Source: Candidatus Krumholzibacteriota bacterium (lineage in GTDB: Bacteria; Krumholzibacteriota; Krumholzibacteriia; JAJRXK01). From it: 64,000 bases of DNA. Positions 50,967 to 63,031 of this stretch are shown piece after piece. The stretch's first letter is position 1. The number at the start of each line of letters is the position of its first letter. Below the pieces are notes generated by a model. That model saw only the letters and a list, made by a program, of their open reading frames with translations. It was not told the origin of the DNA and searched no databases. The translations under genes and the position numbers were made by a program. The stretch covers positions 96,001-160,000 of the forward strand of contig CAVSGG010000007.1 in assembly GCA_963727455.1 (NCBI GenBank). Reading direction: 5' to 3'.

Positions 50967-53900
50967 GTGAACGAAAATCTCATTGCCCAACGCTTTCAAC
51001 GCCTCCTGCCGCTGCACGAAGACGAGACCCTCGCTTTGGACCTGGCGCGTGACCTCGCCTCCGATTCCCTGGGCTCGCTCCTGAGTGTTCGCGCCCGCGC
51101 AGATTGTCATCACGAACTCGCCATGAGAGTGCGGCTGGCCAGTTTCGCGCCGGGGAAGCTGTTCCGTGAGCTTCCGCCGCTGGCGGTGGTCGGGTCGCAC
51201 GACAGTCTGCACTTCTTCTTGCCGCCAATCGAAGCTCATCCCTGGGAAATCCAGCTTTTGGCCTTCGAGGGCAGCCGGGCCATTCAGGATCTGCGCGTCG
51301 TCCTTCAGGGACTCGACGAACTGCTGAAGAAGGGATGCCCTGGGGGGCGGCTCGCTCTCCCCGCGCTCTATCGCGACGAGGAGGGTCCCTTCTTCTTGCC
51401 CAGTTCCTACGTGCTGCCGCCGGCGCAAATGCACTCCCATCACGATCCCAATTCCTGCCGGCAGGAAGTGTGGAACTTGCGGGAAGAGCTTTCGGCTCTG
51501 TGCCGTCGCTATCTGAAAATGGCGGGCGGACGACTCCAGGCGCTCGAGCGCGAGGAGATCAGCGAACTGCAGCGGAAGCTAGTGGCCGAGGACAGCGACG
51601 CGCCGATGTCCGCGGCACTCTCTCCTCTGGCGCAGGCTCTGGAGTCTTCGCGCGAGGAAGGCGGATGTCTGATTCTCTCCGGCAGCGATCGGGCTCAGGA
51701 AGAGGCTGAGCACCTTGCGCTGCGCTGGGCGCAAACCTCCGAACGCAGGCAAGCCGTTCTCCGGCCGCACGTTTCCTCCCCTCTGAGCCGCGCGGGTCGT
51801 GGCAGCGAGGAGAGTGGGGGGCCGGTCGTGATCTTGCGCGATTTCGCTAGCTATCCCGCGTTCGCCGAGAGCTTGCAGCGACTCAAGACTGCGGGCTACT
51901 GGGGAGGGACCGAGATCCTGCTGGTTCTCATTCCCAAAGGCCACAAGGAGGAAGCGGCACGGCTCTACCTGGATGATTTGAGGAGAGGACGCGAAGGCAA
52001 GACCTTCGAGTGGATCCTGCCCGAGCCTCCCAAGGAAGTGCTTACGGTCGAAAAGAGCGCGAGCCTGCAGGGGAGAATTCTCGAAGCACTACAAGAAGCC
52101 GGTCGACCGCTGGCCGCCTCCATGCTCCTGCTCACCCTCTCGGTATCCGAGGAGGAATTCGCCGCGGCCACGACTCGACTCTTCGCACAGGATCGGGTGG
52201 AGTTCTCCTACGGCTTCGTCGACGAAGTGGGAGCGGTACAGGAACTCGTTCTCGCGCTTCCCCCCCAAGAGACAGTGGAGTGCACGGCAGAGCGTGCAGC
52301 CGAAGTCAACAAATTGCTCGCCGCCTCCCTGGAGAAACTCTCAGGACGCAGCGGTCCGGGTTGTCTCTGGCTCCGGCTGCGTCACGCCCTCGCCACCGAA
52401 TCGCCGAGGGTCGGGGCCCTGGCCCGACAACTCGGCGGACTCGCCGAACGCATGGGCGATCCCTTCCTGCAGTACGCGGTCTACGAGCGCATGCTGGCCG
52501 ACGGGTACAGCTCGCATCTCAAGAGTGAAGACCGAGCCAAGGCTGCTCTGGTCATGGGAGGTCTGCACCGCCGAGCGGGTGAATTGACGCGCGCCGAGGA
52601 ACTGCTCAAGAGCGGACTGAAAGGCATCGCCGACGAGGAGGATCAGAGTGGCCGGCCGCTGGTTCCGATGGCGGCGGAGCTCACGCTGGAGCTGGGCGCA
52701 ATCACGCGCGACCGCAACCGGCATACCGAAACCCAAACCCTCATTGCGGAGGCGCTGGAACGTTACGGAGAGGACCTCCCGACCCATCTTCGCGCCAGGC
52801 TCTATCTCGACATTTCCTGGGCGCTTCTGAAGCTGGGTCGCACGCGCGAAGCCGCCAACTACTGCGAGCTCGTGCTGAAGATCCTGGACGGGGAGAGCTA
52901 TCCGCACGAAGTCGCCCGAGCGTACAACCAACTCGGCGTGGTCCAGTACGAGGAGAGCAACTACGCGCAGAGCCTGATCAACTTGCAGCGCGCTCTCGTG
53001 CTTCGCGAGCAGGCGGGGGACGCGATGGGAGTCGCGCGCAGCTACAACAACCTTTCGCTCACCTATCGCAGTTTGGGCCGACTGGCCGAGGCGGAGCGCT
53101 GTCTCAAGCGCAGCCTCGAAGCCAAGGTGAAGGCGGGCGACTCTCTCGGGGTCGCGGTCACCCAACTCAATCTCGGTCTGCTCGCGATCGATCAACACGA
53201 ATACCAGCGCGCGCGAGCCTATGCCGCGGAGTGCCTCCACGTCGCCCGCCGCTACCGTCACCGGCAAATGGAAGCCGAAGCCCACGGCTTACTCGGAGAG
53301 GCGGCCATGGGCGAGGGCCACTACCAGGAGGCGCGGGATCTTCTCCTGCGGGATTTGGAACTTTGTCGGGCCCAGAACTACGAGACCGAGAGACTGGCCA
53401 CTCTCAGGCGTATCGTCGGCCTGATGCTGAAACTGAAGAACTTGAAGGAGGCCAAACAGCGGCTCGAAGAGGCGCGCGAGCTCTTGACCACGGTTCCCTC
53501 GCTCTACGAGGCGTCGATGCTCCAGGTCTTCCAGTCCGAGATCCTCCGTCACGATGGCGTGCACCAGCAAGCTCGTGATGTCCTGAACAAGGCGGCGCGA
53601 AGCTTCGGTGGCATGCGGCGCTACGACTTGCAACTCGACTGTCTGGCGCGCCGCGCGGAGCTCGAATGGGAATTGGGTCACAAGTCCGAAGCGAGGTTGA
53701 CCTTCCAGGAGGCACGGGAGCTGGCGATGCGCCACGAGATCCATCGCCTGCCCACCTTCCTTCACGAACTGGAGGGACGTTTGGAAGGGAGCCTGATTGG
53801 GAGTCCGGCGCCCGCCGCCACGGACCACAAGCTGGAGACGCTCGCCGAACTCTTGGGGCCGGGAGGCGATCTCGAAGCCGGACGGCCCGGAGCGGTGCTT

Positions 53901-55289
53901 CGCATGGTGGCGGCCGTCCTGGCCGCCCCGGAGGTGTATTGGATGCGTACTCCACGCCAGCGCTCACTCGCTCTGGTGCGCGGAAAAGTCACCGAGCAAG
54001 CGGCACCCAACAAGCTGCAGGAACTCGTGTCGAAGACGAAGGCGGGACGGACGACCCCGAGTTTCCAGGAGCGACCCTTTACCGGGGTGCGCGTACGCGG
54101 CGCGGATGTCGGCTGGCTCTGCGTGAAGCGCGATCGTCGGCTCGATGAGGGCGAGCTCGCATTCCTGCTCACGGTGGCGGGTATCCTGAGTTTGGCGGGA
54201 CGGCAAGCCACGACCCAAGTCCCCGAGGAATCGTTCGTCACCGAAGAGAAGGAACAGCCTGGCGCCACCTACGGCATCATCGGGAACAGTTCCGAGATCC
54301 GAGAAGTGTTGCGCATGATCGAAATGGTCAAGGGCAACGACGTAACCATCCTGATTCTCGGAGAAAACGGGACCGGGAAAGACCTCGTGGCGCGCGCCAT
54401 CCACAACGCGGGGCCCAGAGCGAAAAGGGAAATGGTGGCGGTCAACTGCGCCTCGATTCCTCCCACTCTCCTGGAGAGCGAGCTCTTCGGACACGAGAAG
54501 GGCGCCTTCACCTCGGCCGTCGACCGCCGCATCGGTCTCTTCGAGCGAGCTCATGGTGGCAGTGTGTTTCTCGACGAGATCGCTGAGATGCCTTTGGCCA
54601 TGCAGGCAAAGCTGTTGCGTGTGTTGCAGGACAAGACCTTCACCCGCGTGGGTGGAAGCAAGAACATCAGTTCCGATGTGCGGGTCATCGCGGCCACCAA
54701 CCGGGATCTGACAGAGGAAGTGGAGCAGGGACGCTTCCGGATGGATCTCTTTTACCGGCTCAACGTCATCTCCATTCGGCTTCCCCCTCTTCGCGAACGG
54801 CGAGAGGACATCCGGCCGCTGGTACATCACTTCCTGCTCTCGTTTTCCAGCGAGTTCCGGCGCCCGGTGCGGGGAATCACCGAGGAGGCGATCGACCGGC
54901 TCATGAACTACGACTGGCCGGGCAACATCCGGGAACTGGAAAACGTCATCAAAAAGGCGATCGTATTCGCGAGCCGCGACCTCCTGCGGGTAGAGGATTT
55001 ACCCAGAATGGGTACGAAGGGACTGCGGATGCACCGTCGTCCCAAGCTCGAGGACACCGTGCGGAGCCTCATCGAGAGCGAGGACTACTCCGCCCAGAGG
55101 CCGCTGATGCCGCGTCTCGAGCTGCAAATCGCCTGGGAACTCGTGCAGTCCGTCGGAAACAAGACAAAAGCCGCGCGCCTGCTGGGGATCACCAAACCCA
55201 CGCTCTACAGCCGTTTGCGCCGTTATGCCGCCCTCAGTGGCGAAGGCGAAGAAGGAGTGATTTTGCGGCAAAAAAGTGGGCGAGCCTAG
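50967..55289 (+). CDS. Giant sigma54-dependent activator (bEBP) with TPR array, AAA+ domain and Fis-type HTH
   Basis: TPRs (ARAYNQLGVV, ARSYNNLSL, AVTQLNLGLL); GENGTGKD, ESELFGHEKGAFTSA, FLDEI, FRMDLFYRLNV, WPGNIREL; NKTKAARLLGITKPTLYSRL. Confidence 0.92.
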   Translation: MNENLIAQRFQRLLPLHEDETLALDLARDLASDSLGSLLSVRARADCHHELAMRVRLASFAPGKLFRELPPLAVVGSHDSLHFFLPPIEAHPWEIQLLAFEGSRAIQDLRVVLQGLDELLKKGCPGGRLALPALYRDEEGPFFLPSSYVLPPAQMHSHHDPNSCRQEVWNLREELSALCRRYLKMAGGRLQALEREEISELQRKLVAEDSDAPMSAALSPLAQALESSREEGGCLILSGSDRAQEEAEHLALRWAQTSERRQAVLRPHVSSPLSRAGRGSEESGGPVVILRDFASYPAFAESLQRLKTAGYWGGTEILLVLIPKGHKEEAARLYLDDLRRGREGKTFEWILPEPPKEVLTVEKSASLQGRILEALQEAGRPLAASMLLLTLSVSEEEFAAATTRLFAQDRVEFSYGFVDEVGAVQELVLALPPQETVECTAERAAEVNKLLAASLEKLSGRSGPGCLWLRLRHALATESPRVGALARQLGGLAERMGDPFLQYAVYERMLADGYSSHLKSEDRAKAALVMGGLHRRAGELTRAEELLKSGLKGIADEEDQSGRPLVPMAAELTLELGAITRDRNRHTETQTLIAEALERYGEDLPTHLRARLYLDISWALLKLGRTREAANYCELVLKILDGESYPHEVARAYNQLGVVQYEESNYAQSLINLQRALVLREQAGDAMGVARSYNNLSLTYRSLGRLAEAERCLKRSLEAKVKAGDSLGVAVTQLNLGLLAIDQHEYQRARAYAAECLHVARRYRHRQMEAEAHGLLGEAAMGEGHYQEARDLLLRDLELCRAQNYETERLATLRRIVGLMLKLKNLKEAKQRLEEARELLTTVPSLYEASMLQVFQSEILRHDGVHQQARDVLNKAARSFGGMRRYDLQLDCLARRAELEWELGHKSEARLTFQEARELAMRHEIHRLPTFLHELEGRLEGSLIGSPAPAATDHKLETLAELLGPGGDLEAGRPGAVLRMVAAVLAAPEVYWMRTPRQRSLALVRGKVTEQAAPNKLQELVSKTKAGRTTPSFQERPFTGVRVRGADVGWLCVKRDRRLDEGELAFLLTVAGILSLAGRQATTQVPEESFVTEEKEQPGATYGIIGNSSEIREVLRMIEMVKGNDVTILILGENGTGKDLVARAIHNAGPRAKREMVAVNCASIPPTLLESELFGHEKGAFTSAVDRRIGLFERAHGGSVFLDEIAEMPLAMQAKLLRVLQDKTFTRVGGSKNISSDVRVIAATNRDLTEEVEQGRFRMDLFYRLNVISIRLPPLRERREDIRPLVHHFLLSFSSEFRRPVRGITEEAIDRLMNYDWPGNIRELENVIKKAIVFASRDLLRVEDLPRMGTKGLRMHRRPKLEDTVRSLIESEDYSAQRPLMPRLELQIAWELVQSVGNKTKAARLLGITKPTLYSRLRRYAALSGEGEEGVILRQKSGRA

Positions 55290-55407
55290 CGCTCCAGCGA
55301 GCCATCGGCCCGAAACGAACCAGAAAGTGGTTCCCTCAGCGCACAAAGATCTGTATCATACCAAAAGCTGGCAGTACCCTGCCAACGAGCCCAGGAGGAG
55401 GGTTTCC

Positions 55408-55770
55408 ATGTTCCGCACTGGCACCATTGCCGTACTTCTCCTCTTCGTCGCACTCTTCACTGCTGTCGCGTTAACGCCGGCTCACGCCAAATGGGCCGTA
55501 AAGGCCACCTTCGATGCGGGGACGCACGAACTCAATCTCGGCACGCAAGTGCTGGAAGTGACCAACAGCAAGCCCATCGTCATCACGGTGCAGTCGGGGA
55601 CGGACCTCATCGCGGGCATCATCGACGCGCTCCAGAAGAACGAGTCCACCCGCGTCCGGATCATCCTCAAGCGTGAAGAGGATACGCTGCTCTTCGATGG
55701 TGAGGTGGCCGACACCGTAGAGTTCAAATCGGCCACCAGCACGGATGAAACCGGGCACTCCGAACTCTAG
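55408..55770 (+). CDS. Small secreted protein (120 aa)
   Basis: AGGAGGAGG RBS; signal peptide ending PAHA; beta-rich mature part. Confidence 0.8.
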   Translation: MFRTGTIAVLLLFVALFTAVALTPAHAKWAVKATFDAGTHELNLGTQVLEVTNSKPIVITVQSGTDLIAGIIDALQKNESTRVRIILKREEDTLLFDGEVADTVEFKSATSTDETGHSEL

Positions 55771-55925
55771 GTTTTGTCCCCAATTCGTTAAAATATTTGC
55801 TGAAATATAAAATTCCTTGATGGTGTAGTTTTTTGAACCGTGGACCGGGTCGCAACGGGAATTTTCAACTTCAAATTTGCCAAGGACTTAGCGCTGCGTT
55901 CCCGCGTCGAAAATGAGCGAACAGC

Positions 55926-55941
55926 TGGCACGCGATATGCC
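55926..55941 (+). promoter_or_regulatory. Sigma54 (-24/-12) promoter
   Basis: TGGCACGCGATATGCC (GG-N10-GC); IHF-like CCAAGGACTTAG ~40 bp upstream; AT-rich tract ~55790-55835 could hold the UAS. Confidence 0.85.
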
Positions 55942-55950
55942 ATGTATCAA

Positions 55951-56128
55951 GCTCGGATAGGCAAACGAGCCTACTTACTGGCGAGGGCGGCTGGAGGTGT
56001 GTCAGGAATACGAGGGGCTTTCACCGCTTCGCCAGTAAGGATATCGTGCGAGTGCCATCCGTTGGATCGCGATAATCGTTGTGCTACCGTGCGCCGGGTC
56101 TCTCTTGGAGGCCCGGCGTTCGTGTCTT
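55951..56128 (+). ncRNA. Candidate sigma54-dependent small RNA
   Basis: Starts at the predicted TSS. Four hairpins, including CTTACTGGCGA/TCGCCAGTAAG extended to ~23 bp, and a terminal GC-rich terminator-like hairpin. No credible internal ORF. Confidence 0.7.
56091..56128 (+). terminator. Probable terminator of the candidate sRNA
   Basis: GCGCCGGGTCTC-loop-GAGGCCCGGCGT followed by TCGTGTCTT (weak U tail). Confidence 0.6.
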
Positions 56129-56236
56129 CCTGGGGAATCGCGGGGAGAATCGCGTCGACACCCCACGGCTTCTGAGCTAGCGTGTGCCTGATCCAGCTCG
56201 AACCCCCTCCTTTTTCCATCGAGGTCAGAACCCGTC

Positions 56237-57013
56237 GTGAAGCCCTGGTGTACGCGGATTCTCGCGAGCGGGTGCTGGCTCCTCTTGGGCCTACTCGGTA
56301 CCGCCCACGCGGTAGACTTGCAGTCCTTGCCGGAAATCGGTGCGGTGGTGGACGCCCGGGTTCCCCTGCCCACCGACGGTGTGCGGGGCTTTCTCTTCGA
56401 GAACGACTCCGTGGTGCTCTTGGCCACCGCCAATAGGGGGCTCTCTGCTCCTGATTCCACCTTTCAGGTCAGTTTGATGCGGTGGCAGGCATCGACCGGG
56501 AACCTGCGCATCCTGAGCACGCAAACCGACGAGTTCGAAACCGGCTTAAGCTCCGATGGAGAAAACTGGTGGAGCAGTGGCAGCCTCTTGGGGACGAGCA
56601 GCGGGATCTATCAGATTTCCCCGGGCAGCGGCAAAGTCCTGACGACCCTCCCTGCACCAGGTCATCACCCGGGAGGGATCGCGTACGACGGGCTGTACCT
56701 GTGGGTCGTCGACTGCGACGCGCGGAACATTCTGAGGGTAGATACCGAGGAGGGCCGCGTATCCAAGAAGGTTGCGGCGCCCGCGTTCTATCCCACGGGC
56801 TTGGCCTACGACGGTTACCACTTCTGGTCCGCCGACGCCAGTACGGGCAGGCTCTACCGGCTCTCGGGAACCACCGGCCGGCGCGATGCCGTGATCGCCA
56901 AGGACGCGTTCTACCGACCCGGAGAGTTCGTGAGCCTCAGCTGGGACGGCAAGGGTCTGTGGACCGTGGCCGCCAGTGACTCCGAGGCTGCCCGCCTGCA
57001 GATTCTGCGCTGA
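56237..57013 (+). CDS. Secreted beta-propeller protein (glutaminyl-cyclase/YncE-like repeats)
   Basis: Signal peptide ending AHA; repeats GLSSDGENWW, GIAYDGLYLW, GLAYDGYHFW, SLSWDGKGLW. Confidence 0.75.
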   Translation: MKPWCTRILASGCWLLLGLLGTAHAVDLQSLPEIGAVVDARVPLPTDGVRGFLFENDSVVLLATANRGLSAPDSTFQVSLMRWQASTGNLRILSTQTDEFETGLSSDGENWWSSGSLLGTSSGIYQISPGSGKVLTTLPAPGHHPGGIAYDGLYLWVVDCDARNILRVDTEEGRVSKKVAAPAFYPTGLAYDGYHFWSADASTGRLYRLSGTTGRRDAVIAKDAFYRPGEFVSLSWDGKGLWTVAASDSEAARLQILR

Positions 57014-57245
57014 TCTTGGCCCCCTTTTTGCCCCTTGTGGCGCACTGTGGTTTGCTTGACGCCCCCCGTATACCATGGCTAAGTTGAAGATGTCAGCGGC
57101 GAGTTCCTCTCCATGCCGTTGCAAGCGTGCAATCGCAACGGCCTGCTATCACATCAGTTGACACGACCTCCTAGCTTGGTATGGAGATTGCAGCTCATGC
57201 TGTACACGATCTTCCAGCCAAGAGCCCCAATTGCGGGAGAGCACG

Positions 57246-59309
57246 ATGGCAGCGCCAAGCGGTCCATGGACCGATTACATCGAGAGTCTTCAGAATACTC
57301 AGGCCTATCGCGAGCAACACTGGGAAGGATCCTTCGAGGACTACCTTGCCATAGTTCACAAGGATCCCAAGGTCATGCGTTCCGCCTATCAGCGGCTCTA
57401 CGACATGATCATCAGCTACGGGAGTGACGAGTACACCGAGTACAAGAAAAAGATCACCCACTACAACTTCTTCAACGATCCCTTCCAGGGCGGACAGGAT
57501 GCGGTCTTCGGGATCGACATCACGCTCATGAAGCTGGTGAACGTCTTCAAGTCTGCTGCCTACCGTTACGGCACCGAGAAGCGCGTGATTCTTCTGCACG
57601 GACCGGTGGGCTCGGCGAAGAGCACGATCGTGAGGCTCTTGAAGCGCGGAGTCGAAGACTACAGCCGCAGACCCGAGGGAATGATCTTCTCCTTCTACTG
57701 GGATCTCAAGGACGTGCCTGGCATGGAGGAACAGGGTTTCGCCTGCCCGATGCACGAGGAGCCGCTGCATCTCATTCCCGTGCACGATCGCGAAGAGGTC
57801 ATGCACAAGCTCATCGGCGATTCTCCCGAACCCTATCCGCTGCGTTGCGAGGGGGAACTCTGTCCTGCCTGCCGCCACACTTTCTCACTCCTGATGGAGC
57901 ACCATGCGGGCGACTGGACCAAAGTGGTGCAGCACGCGCGGGTGAAGCGTCTCATCCTGAGTGAGCAGGATCGTATCGGCATTGGCACCTTCCAGCCCAA
58001 GGACGAAAAAAACCAGGATTCGACCGAACTCACCGGAGACATCAACTACCGCAAGATCGCGATTTACGGCAGCGACTCGGACCCGCGCGCCTTCAACTTC
58101 GACGGGGAATTCAACATCGCCAACCGAGGCATCGTCGAGTTCATCGAGGTCCTCAAGCTCGATGTCGCGTTCCTCTATGACTTGCTGGGCGCCAGCCAAG
58201 AGCACAAGGTCAAACCCAAAAAGTTCGCCCAGACCGACATCGACGAGGTCATCATCGGTCATACCAACGAGCCCGAGTACCGCAAGCTCCAGAACAACGA
58301 GTTCATGGAGGCGCTGCGTGACCGCACGGTGAAGATCGACGTGCCGTACATCACCAAGCTCGACAAAGAAGTGCTGATCTATCGCAAGGACTATTCGGAC
58401 GAAAAGGTACGCGGCAAACACGTGGCGCCGCACACCCTGGACATGGCGGCGATGTGGGCCGTTCTGACTCGACTCGAGGAGCCGAAGAAGGCGAAGCTCT
58501 CCCTCCTGCAGAAACTCAAGCTCTACAACGGGCATTCGGTTCCAGGTTACACGGACGACAACGTGAAAGAGCTGCGCAAAGAGGCCACCCGCGAGGGCAT
58601 GGAAGGGGTCAGCCCCCGTTACGTGCAGGACAAGCTCTCCAATGGTCTGGTGAGCGAGGACATCGAGGGTTGCCTCAATCCCTTCATGGTGTTGAACGAA
58701 CTCGAGTCGGGCTTGAAGCACTCGACCCTCATCACCAACGAAGATCAGAGGAAGCGCTACGCGGACATGTTCATTCAGGTGCGCGAGGAATACGAGAACG
58801 TCGTCAAGAGCGAGGTGCAACGCTCGATCTCGGCTGACGAAGAGGCGATCGGACGACTCTGTTCCAACTACATCGACAACGTGAAGGCTTACACGCAGCG
58901 CGAGAAGGTGCGCAACCGCTACACCGGCCAGGATGAAGAGCCCGACGAGCGTCTGATGCGGGCCATCGAGGAAAAGATCGAGATTCCCGAGAGCCGTAAG
59001 GAGGACTTCCGTCGCGAGATCATGAATTACATCGGTGCTCTCGCGCTGGAAGGCAAAGTCTTCAACTACAAGACGAACGCGAGATTGCAGAGGGCGCTCG
59101 AGCTCAAGCTCTTCGAGGACCAGAAGGACAGCATCAAGCTGAGTACGCTGGTGACCAACGTCGTGGACAAGGAAACTCAGGAGAAGATCGACGTGGTCAA
59201 GGAGAGGCTGAAGCGCAACTACGGCTACTGCGACATCTGCGCCAGCGACGTGCTCAACTTCGTTTCGTCGATCTTCGCACGTGGTGACGTCCAGGAAGAG
59301 TCCCAATAG
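57246..59309 (+). CDS. prkA: PrkA/YeaG family AAA+ serine protein kinase
   Basis: [61 protein letters not shown]. Confidence 0.95.
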
Positions 59310-61945: not shown

Positions 61946-61993
61946 CAGCCCCCTACGCCTCACCTAGCTTCGGCATTGATTGTCATTTTCAAT
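61942..61993 (+). promoter_or_regulatory. Sigma70 promoter followed by a Fur box
   Basis: TTGACA-17 nt-TAGCTT (61942-61970), then the 19-bp dyad ATTGATTGTCATTTTCAAT (61975-61993) over the predicted TSS. Confidence 0.75.
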
Positions 61994-62038
61994 TCGCGAG
62001 GGAACCCTCTGATTTTCCCCTTCGGGGGAGGCTTGGTC

Positions 62039-63031
62039 ATGAACGATACAAAGTCCTCTCCCGCGCGGAATTCCTCCACACTGATCGACGAGTTCCGCGC
62101 CTACCTCTTGCGCGAGAACCTGAAGAGTACGCGTCAACGCGAAGCCATCGTGAATGTCTTTGCGCGCATGGAGGGTCACGCCAGCGTCGAGGACTTGCTG
62201 AAGGCGGTGAGCCGGACGGAGAAGGGCATCGGCTACGCCACGGTGTACCGCACGCTCAAGCTCCTCGTCGATTCGGGTCTGGCGAGCGTGCGGCACTTCG
62301 GGGATGGCGAGAGCCGCTACGAAGTTCGCAGCCCGGAGCACCACGACCACTTGATCTGTACCGAATGTGGTCTGGTCATCGAATTCAAATTACCCGAGGT
62401 CGAGAAGCTGCAGGAGGAGGTGGCGAAGAGGGCCGGGTTTCACCTGGAGAGCCACTGCCACGAACTCTACGGGATCTGCCAAGAAGTCGCGGCTGGCCAA
62501 CCGTGCCGCTTTAACCCGGAGGCGGGAAAGGACACGATTGGTGGACGCCCCTTCAGCGATCAGGGTTCCGTTCCCGCTTCTTTCGAACGCCGTTCGGCCG
62601 AGAGCCTTCCCAGCGCCTTCCGCAAGTACCTCGCGCGCGAGCAACTGAAATCCACCCGGCAGCGTGACCTCATCGCGGAGGTCTTCTCCAAGCTGGAGGG
62701 CCACGTCAGTGTCGACGACTTGCTCGCGGAAGTGAAACGCCGGGATCCGCAGATTGGCTATGCCACGGTCTACCGTACTCTGAAACTCCTGGTCGATTCC
62801 GGGCTCGCCGCCAGCCGGAGCTTCGAGGGCGGGCGCACGCGCTATGAGACTCGCGGCCTGGAGCATCACGATCACATGATCTGTCAAAAAACCGGCAAGA
62901 TCATCGAATTCCGCAACGATGAGATCGAACAGCTGCAGGAGAACCTTGCCAAGAGCTTGGGCTTCAAACTTCTCCGGCATCGCCACGAGCTCTACGGCTA
63001 TCTCGAAGCTGCGGCCCCCCCGGAAAACTGA
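62039..63031 (+). CDS. Tandem Fur-Fur metalloregulator (two complete Fur domains in one chain)
   Basis: Two copies of LKSTRQR..GYATVYRTLKLLVDSGLA..HHDH(L/M)IC..H.HELYG. Confidence 0.9.
   Translation: MNDTKSSPARNSSTLIDEFRAYLLRENLKSTRQREAIVNVFARMEGHASVEDLLKAVSRTEKGIGYATVYRTLKLLVDSGLASVRHFGDGESRYEVRSPEHHDHLICTECGLVIEFKLPEVEKLQEEVAKRAGFHLESHCHELYGICQEVAAGQPCRFNPEAGKDTIGGRPFSDQGSVPASFERRSAESLPSAFRKYLAREQLKSTRQRDLIAEVFSKLEGHVSVDDLLAEVKRRDPQIGYATVYRTLKLLVDSGLAASRSFEGGRTRYETRGLEHHDHMICQKTGKIIEFRNDEIEQLQENLAKSLGFKLLRHRHELYGYLEAAAPPEN

Follow-up and report, generated by a model that had tools for sequence, protein, structure and literature searches.

The genes of the small RNAs (sRNAs) Qrr and GlmY adjoin those of their bacterial enhancer-binding proteins (bEBPs), and the action of Qrr needs Hfq. 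Qrr with LuxO, and GlmY with GlrK-GlrR, represent bEBP-dependent sigma-54 sRNAs that are tied to a two-component pathway (PMC10162802, PMC4152352, PMC7073468). The pxr gene is described as lying downstream of the bEBP gene nla19 on the same strand, with a predicted sigma-54 promoter and an enhancer site in the spacer, and as encoding an RNA with multiple stem-loops that occurs in one lineage (PMC5568312). The nrsZ gene of Pseudomonas aeruginosa occupies the spacer between ntrC and PA5126 and is reported to depend on NtrC and RpoN (PMC4253122). Here we describe an RNA locus from Candidatus Krumholzibacteriota that can be set beside these systems. The window, i.e. the whole stretch of 64,000 nucleotides (nt) that was analysed, is part of contig C7 of a 3.46-Mb assembly (genome G000, 88.85% complete); its + strand carries, at 55926-56130, a structured RNA unit made up of a -24/-12 promoter, an RNA of ~180 nt and a GC-rich terminator-like hairpin. 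We consider it somewhat probable that the product is a leader-type regulatory RNA under sigma-54 control that also exists as a stable, released small RNA.

Like Pxr of Myxococcus (PMC5568312), the Krumholzibacteriota RNA follows a bEBP gene and shares its strand; its sigma-54 promoter is a predicted one with a candidate upstream site, it folds into several stem-loops, and it is restricted to one lineage. Unlike Pxr, it is ~180 nt long as compared with the 108-nt pxr region (PMC5568312), shows no sequence or structure match to it via Rfam, contains a long hairpin whose apical module is invariant, and is fused to a kinase gene in sister genera. With NrsZ it shares the arrangement of a sigma-54-driven RNA encoded beside an activator gene, although the activator here is a candidate; NrsZ is built of repeated, processed units (PMC4253122), whereas the RNA described here is a single unit in a single copy, and the candidate activator has no receiver domain but an N-terminus of ~1000 amino acids (aa) that contains tetratricopeptide repeats (TPR). 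The locus differs from Qrr and GlmY in that hfq was found in none of the ten genomes of the family, so that the check for hfq suggested in an earlier note on this DNA came out negative; in addition, Rfam reveals no homology and the downstream kinase gene abuts the RNA. The RNA also resembles terminator-type leaders such as riboswitches and attenuators, with a helix-closed folded domain, a short linker and a terminator hairpin, and with a constant place upstream of the same genes on the same strand, but it lacks a match to any known aptamer family and a conserved antiterminator. Riboswitches, to our knowledge, are seldom placed under a sigma-54 promoter that has an activator of its own. The unusual twist relative to Pxr, NrsZ, Qrr and GlmY is that the RNA, as judged from gene arrangement, also serves as leader to the gene for a sensor-less kinase.

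The existence of a conserved RNA is indicated by its folding and by covariation. The + strand of 55950-56130 has a minimum free energy (MFE) of -87.2 kcal/mol (z -4.28), and none of 200 shuffles folds as well; the reverse strand reaches -65.2 kcal/mol (z -3.19). The alignment comprised 15 distinct homologues, with the chance matches L031 and L036, the truncated L039 and duplicate rows left out. RNAalifold identified 45 pairs in these 15 sequences, 17 of them with compensatory changes, which provides the covariation that the earlier note had named as a check. Paired cells made up 97.0% of 670, as compared with 38.0-48.3% when partners were slid by 1-3 columns; changes on both sides occurred in 17 pairs as compared with 1-6 in the slid controls, and none of 500 shuffles attained the observed values. 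Read as the + strand, 650 of the 670 cells pair, as compared with 571 when read as the - strand, and 85 cells are G-U. We therefore assign the RNA to the + strand.

Three blocks are nearly invariant in the 15 homologues: CGGAUAGGCA at the 5' end, the apical module of the long hairpin, and GAUCGCGA. The 5' segment CGGAUAGGCAAAC.AGCC (55954-55971, +) contains CGGAU, the 5' strand of the consensus closing helix P1, and GGC/GCC, which forms the 3-bp hairpin P2. The 3' strand of P1, AUC(G)CG (56066-56071), lies within the invariant GAUCGCGA (56065-56072, +). P1 pairs in 15/15 sequences, one of its pairs being C-G in 11, U-G in three and U-A in one; P2, because it is invariant, is untested by covariation. 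The long hairpin P3 (55974-56039, +) has ~24 pairs, among them a perfect 11-bp helix of CTTACTGGCGA (55974-55984) with TCGCCAGTAAG (56029-56039). It shows compensatory changes in 7/24 pairs, and 95.7-98.1% of its cells are paired. Its apical module of 19-20 nt (55998-56016) is identical across homologues, apart from one A/C position, and holds the CAGGA loop (56003-56007) and a purine-rich GAGGGG bulge. The GC-rich 3' hairpin (56088-56122, +, with a tail to 56130) has 13 pairs, nine with compensatory changes and 96.3% of cells paired, and is followed by the tail TTCGTGTCTT. The fraction of T past its stem is 0.44 in the homologues, as compared with 0.195 across the RNA, and this U-rich tail is retained in a genome with ~20% T. 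We consider the hairpin a putative intrinsic terminator, which would give an RNA of ~175-180 nt. The long stem, the CAGGA apical loop and the terminator-like hairpin had all been proposed from the window sequence, and each is located where it had been placed; the stem and the terminator moreover covary. Two further hairpins proposed at the same time, a first one (GCTCG/CGAGC) and a third stem (TATCGTG/CGCGATA), are present in the window, but neither is retained in relatives, where the consensus has P1 and P2 instead.

The predicted sigma-54 promoter, TGGCACGCGATATGCC (55926-55941, +), has its GG at 55927-28 and its GC at 55939-40 and reads TGGCAC-N5-ATGC, the published consensus being TGGCAC-N5-TTGCW (PMC4253122). 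The GG-N10-GC pattern is retained in 18/18 homologous sequences, with variable bases in between, and the distance from the C of the -12 element to the invariant GGAU is 12-15 nt in all 18. Given this steady distance, the predicted start of the RNA, at ~55951-55953 and 1-3 nt ahead of the invariant CGGAUAGGC, coincides with the onset of conservation. The window contains four matches to the sigma-54 consensus as compared with 1.0 expected, rpoN was found in the genome, and a simple promoter scan detected no sigma-70-like promoter in 55000-57200. By sequence evidence, the promoter originally proposed for this RNA is well placed and conserved.

Further upstream, an AT-rich block (55784-55816, without strand assignment) contains a degenerate dyad akin to CGTAAA-N5-TTTACG and is a candidate upstream activating sequence of the RNA promoter. 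A dyad-like element is situated 110-140 nt 5' of the -24 element in 10/10 genomes and is degenerate in the genus of the window. One or two dyads of the CGTAAA-N5-TTTACG type directly follow the stop codon of the gene for a small exported protein, both in the window and at the homologous places of L014-L022. The exact form GTAAA-N5-TTTAC occurs in 3/5 genomes scanned, in one or two copies each, one of which is always at the RNA locus; close to the two other exact copies (G006, G008), no sigma-54-like promoter was detected.

The RNA is confined to one family. A BLASTN search with 55900-56240 gave matches in 9/9 other genomes of the family, which represent four genera, and in 0/51 genomes of the other families of the class. 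A covariance model built on the 130-nt core was run on 151 sampled genomes of the phylum and found exactly one copy in ten of them, i.e. the window's own genome and 9/9 other family members, and none in the remaining 141. The pattern of the apical 19-mer, with its one A/C position, occurs in eight contigs among 185,579 species genomes, all of this group, and in 12 metagenome contigs, of which ten are true homologues; the pattern matches L031 and L036 were rejected as homologues. No Rfam 15 family matched at its gathering score anywhere in the window, in agreement with the earlier description of the RNA as unannotated, and at E<=10 over 55700-56400 we obtained just Six3os1_7, bxd_1 and PinT, which are chance matches upstream of the RNA core. 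Identity with 6S RNA was rejected because the canonical 6S RNA sits elsewhere (G000:C5:583654-583833, RF00013, 60.2 bits). These results indicate that this is a new RNA family, family-specific within Krumholzibacteriota and of sigma-54/bEBP sRNA-type design.

The suggestion that the RNA is also a leader comes from the genes that follow it. In the window, the next gene is p258 (56237-57013, +), which starts 109 nt past the terminator tail and encodes an exported repeat protein with a signal-like N-terminus and a weak match to DUF6923 (Pfam). It is found downstream, on the same strand as the RNA, in 8/9 loci of relatives; in the ninth, the contig ends first. In three genera (g2-g4), a gene for a hybrid histidine kinase (HK) of ~370-400 aa lies between the RNA and p258, and the HK and p258 genes are tightly packed. 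The HK has an H-box near its N-terminus, then HATPase_c and then a receiver, and has no sensor domain. In G005, G006 and L042, the HK gene starts 7-30 nt past the terminator hairpin: its ATG lies 7 nt past the hairpin tail in G006, its GTG lies ~25 nt past the hairpin in G005, where an in-frame stop is located within the hairpin loop, and its ATG lies 3' of the hairpin in L042. In five sequences of the g4 clade, just one start codon is far enough 5' of the H-box, namely an ATG within the RNA, 18 nt ahead of GAUCGCGA. GAUCGC and the H-box are spaced by a multiple of three nucleotides in 8/9 sequences that have an H-box. Across the g4 clade (L018-L022, L027, L030, L033, L034, L037), the HK open reading frame (ORF) appears to start at an ATG inside the RNA; in the HK frame of this clade, GAUCGCGA is read as His-Asp-Arg-Glu and the terminator hairpin occupies codons ~18-30.

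The RNA is therefore not independent of the downstream gene, as a transcription unit of its own, in G005, G006, L042 and the g4 clade. Because in three sister genera the HK gene either begins directly past the terminator or has its start within the RNA, we regard the RNA as also a leader. As the arrangement is laid out in g2-g4, there is apparently no room for a separate HK promoter, and the RNA is best described as the kinase leader, with the hairpin placed before or within the first HK codons. The genus of the window (g1) has lost the HK and has retained the RNA, the terminator and compensatory changes, which implies that the RNA has a value beyond leading the HK gene.

The upstream gene (50967-55289, +) encodes a bEBP of 1440 aa, which is a candidate for activating the RNA promoter. 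This protein combines TPR repeats with an AAA+ domain of the sigma-54 type, a lid and a helix-turn-helix of the Fis type (Pfam Sigma54_activat 4.9e-70, TPR_12, AAA_lid_14, HTH_8). The ~1000 aa N-terminal to the AAA+ domain contain the TPR repeats and no receiver domain; for the first ~600 aa there was no Pfam match. The Walker A motif is GENGTGK. The bEBP gene is syntenic upstream of the RNA in 9/9 relatives, which is in line with the tie to a bEBP, in a poorly studied phylum, that the earlier note had raised. The N-terminal 600 aa were detected in 7/9 family genomes at E<=1e-10 and in none of the 141 phylum genomes sampled outside the family, a distribution that matches the family range of the RNA. 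The interval that separates the bEBP gene from the RNA holds p164 (55276-55770, +), a gene for a small exported protein whose probable start is an internal Met ahead of a signal-like hydrophobic stretch. p164 has no Pfam or NCBIfam match; tblastn located it in four genomes of the genus, and its ETGHxE-like C-terminal end is visible ahead of the dyad element in 10/10 genomes.

We propose the following series of events. The neighbouring TPR-containing bEBP would bind the dyad 110-140 nt upstream and fire the -24/-12 promoter, so that the transcript would start 1-3 nt ahead of the invariant CGGAUAGGC. The RNA would then fold into a domain closed by a helix between its 5' and 3' parts, with the long covarying hairpin bearing the invariant apical module. 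Some 20 nt further on, the GC-rich hairpin and its U-rich tail would end most transcripts at ~175-180 nt, and read-through would reach the downstream signalling genes. In three genera these are the HK gene and that of the exported protein, whereas the genus of the window has only the latter. It is this order of events that leads us to read the RNA as a leader-type RNA that is also released as a small RNA. The apical module, like the closing helix, has the look of a surface on which a protein or ligand docks, and not that of a base-pairing seed. As to the site of action, we tentatively favour action in cis, regard action in trans as possible, and consider an absence of regulatory action unlikely. 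The data show that the promoter motif, the upstream element and the RNA are conserved, on which strand the RNA lies, that stem and terminator covary, that the RNA is single-copy, and that it is syntenic and co-distributed with the bEBP gene, whereas the acting bEBP, termination at the hairpin, read-through feeding the next genes and what the RNA senses are inferred.

Several observations weigh against this proposal. The start, the end and the read-through of the RNA are predictions. No conserved antiterminator was found, RNAalifold on sub-alignments without the 3' arm giving just a 3-bp alternative, and an extra helix flanking GAUCGCGA was not better than shuffles (mean z -0.5), so that no switch of the classical riboswitch type can be seen. 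The bases behind P1 and P2 are mostly invariant, with a single covarying pair, and the window's own MFE gives the 5' end of the RNA a partner other than P1; the alternative closing helix of that fold was rejected, as it is 76.3% paired across relatives with zero compensatory changes. A simple terminator scan did not list the 3' hairpin of the window because the tail has only four T in eight. p258 homologues of 30-39% identity occur in other families without the RNA, and in the genus of the window the spacer from the RNA to the next gene, 109 to ~300 nt, fits a free sRNA equally. The sigma-54 contact loop of the bEBP is GAFTSA, the usual loop being GAFTGA. The genome G000 contains ~19 strong sigma-54 activator AAA+ domains (E<1e-60), a number that leaves the neighbouring bEBP a candidate for the activator. 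As an observation in its own right, ~19 bEBP domains in a 3.46-Mb genome represent an unusually heavy use of sigma-54.

The RNA could instead be a free-standing, trans-acting sRNA of the Qrr, GlmY, Pxr or NrsZ kind, which would be induced by the bEBP, released at the terminator and active on distant mRNAs or on a protein, with the downstream genes transcribed from promoters of their own. We regard this as possible but doubtful. The promoter, the adjoining bEBP gene and the strongly covarying terminator with its T-rich tail would all be expected of such an sRNA, as would the empty antiterminator search and the retention of the RNA in a genus without the HK, where the spacer to the next gene is at least 109 nt; precedents adjoining bEBP genes are pxr, next to nla19 (PMC5568312), and nrsZ, in the ntrC-PA5126 spacer (PMC4253122). 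However, three genera and several metagenome lineages leave no room for an HK promoter, the RNA and the downstream genes share a strand in every case, hfq was found in none of the ten genomes, and the conserved parts lie mostly within structure and not in an open seed. Nor did a target search, in which three conserved segments were folded as duplexes with nine loci of 16 kb each, yield a site that recurs at homologous positions; the most stable duplexes (-27 to -37 kcal/mol) were spread over coding DNA. In L016 (G002), two blocks ~7.4 kb 3' of the RNA are complementary to the apical module over 15 bp (duplex -36.7 kcal/mol), a match that was seen in this one genome only and is probably due to chance. 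The earlier claim of a regulatory sRNA thus stands in so far as it describes a conserved, covarying non-coding RNA with a sigma-54-type promoter and a terminator-like hairpin at its end; the free-standing part of the claim is not established, because in sister genera the RNA precedes the kinase gene as its leader, and a leader role is what the earlier note had itself listed among the grounds for refutation. A passive role, in which the region would be a long 5' untranslated region (UTR) or stabilising structure of a sigma-54 operon that senses nothing, and the hairpin a processing or stability element in place of a terminator, appears rather improbable. Sigma-54 promoters mostly drive mRNAs, the search for a switch-like alternative pairing was empty and the T-run is imperfect in the window, all of which would suit a passive UTR, but the U-rich tail is kept despite the low T content of the genome, and blocks of 20 nt and 8-9 nt are invariant across genera in which the flanking proteins are only 35-50% identical, which points to a specific interaction.

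The two remaining explanations are highly improbable, and each is contradicted by the homologues. Titration of CsrA/RsmA by a sponge RNA through the CAGGA apical loop, as suggested in the earlier note, would draw on one A(N)GGA in the apical loop (56003-56007), on six GGA in the 181 nt of the G000 RNA and on the presence of csrA in three of the four genera; a single GGA in a hairpin loop is the feature shared with the CsrB/RsmY/RsmZ-type sponges. Yet csrA (PF02599), which is present in 5/5 genomes of g2-g4, was found in 0/5 genomes of g1, the genus of the window (four with a completeness of 93-98%, the window's own with 88.85%), where the RNA is fully conserved, so that the check for csrA came out differently in the two sets of genera. 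In the g4 clade, which has csrA, the loop AGGA is changed to AGGC in all five sequences (5/15). The homologues contain 3-7 GGA per RNA as compared with shuffle means of 3.0-4.4, i.e. GGA is not enriched, and there is no Rfam match of the CsrB/RsmY/RsmZ type. The suggestion of a sponge is therefore not upheld. That the region is instead protein-coding, through ORF 55840-56175 (+) or through 55971-56219 or 56002-56460 (-), with the structure as an incidental feature, would be in line with the open frames that exist in the window, and with the 3' third of the g4-clade RNA being in frame with the HK at the H-box spacing given above. But stop codons interrupt each of the frames in part of the 15 homologues and no motif-anchored frame is stop-free in all, hence ORF 55840-56175 is not a gene, as had been anticipated from the window; it also lacks a Pfam match. 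The in-frame stop in the hairpin loop of G005 and the frame from the junction GTG of the window, which stops after nine codons, argue in the same direction, as do stems that vary by paired compensatory substitutions and a strand that is fixed by G-U pairs.

Past p258, the RNA locus adjoins genes of the PrkA-YeaH-SpoVR stress/dormancy group, which have a sigma-54 promoter of their own. This second, separate promoter, TGGTATGGAGATTGCAG (57177-57193, +), lies 55 nt before prkA (57231-59309), which is followed by yeaH/DUF444 and spoVR (Pfam PrkA, DUF444, SpoVR). A sigma-54 promoter is located at -54 to -83 relative to prkA in 5/6 loci examined, including G001, G003, G005 and G006, and the sixth, G008, has a TGGCAC...TCGC variant. 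No copy of the dyad of the RNA promoter was found at the prkA promoter. The motif TCGCAACGG, considered as shared upstream of the RNA and prkA promoters, was rejected since it is present in G000 only and not in the other five loci, and the sigma-54-like match TGGCCCCCTTTTTGC (57017-57031, right after the p258 stop) was discarded as not conserved in relatives. At the far side of spoVR, a 351-aa ORF (61976-63031) contains two Fur-family stretches (PF01475, 5.1e-72) and may represent a tandem Fur protein or a mis-set start.

In a bolder form of the leader reading, which we consider a long shot, the RNA would belong to a new class of sigma-54-controlled sensing leader, whose apical module binds a ligand or protein and thereby sets the read-through into the sensor-less HK; in g4, ribosomes starting inside the RNA would melt the terminator, i.e. 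anti-termination would be coupled to translation. At its boldest, this reading would make the RNA the missing input domain of that kinase pathway, and the RNA would have survived as a free regulator where the HK was lost. The locus further represents an independent case of the recurring design in which an activator gene is followed by its sigma-54 RNA, here apparently combined with the role of leader to a kinase gene. Regulatory RNAs are essentially unknown in Krumholzibacteriota, itself known from metagenomes alone, and among the matches listed in a search of the literature naming this phylum there was no work on RNAs. With its giant bEBP devoid of a receiver, near-unique dyad, sigma-54 promoter and strongly covarying RNA, the locus forms a clean, testable module.

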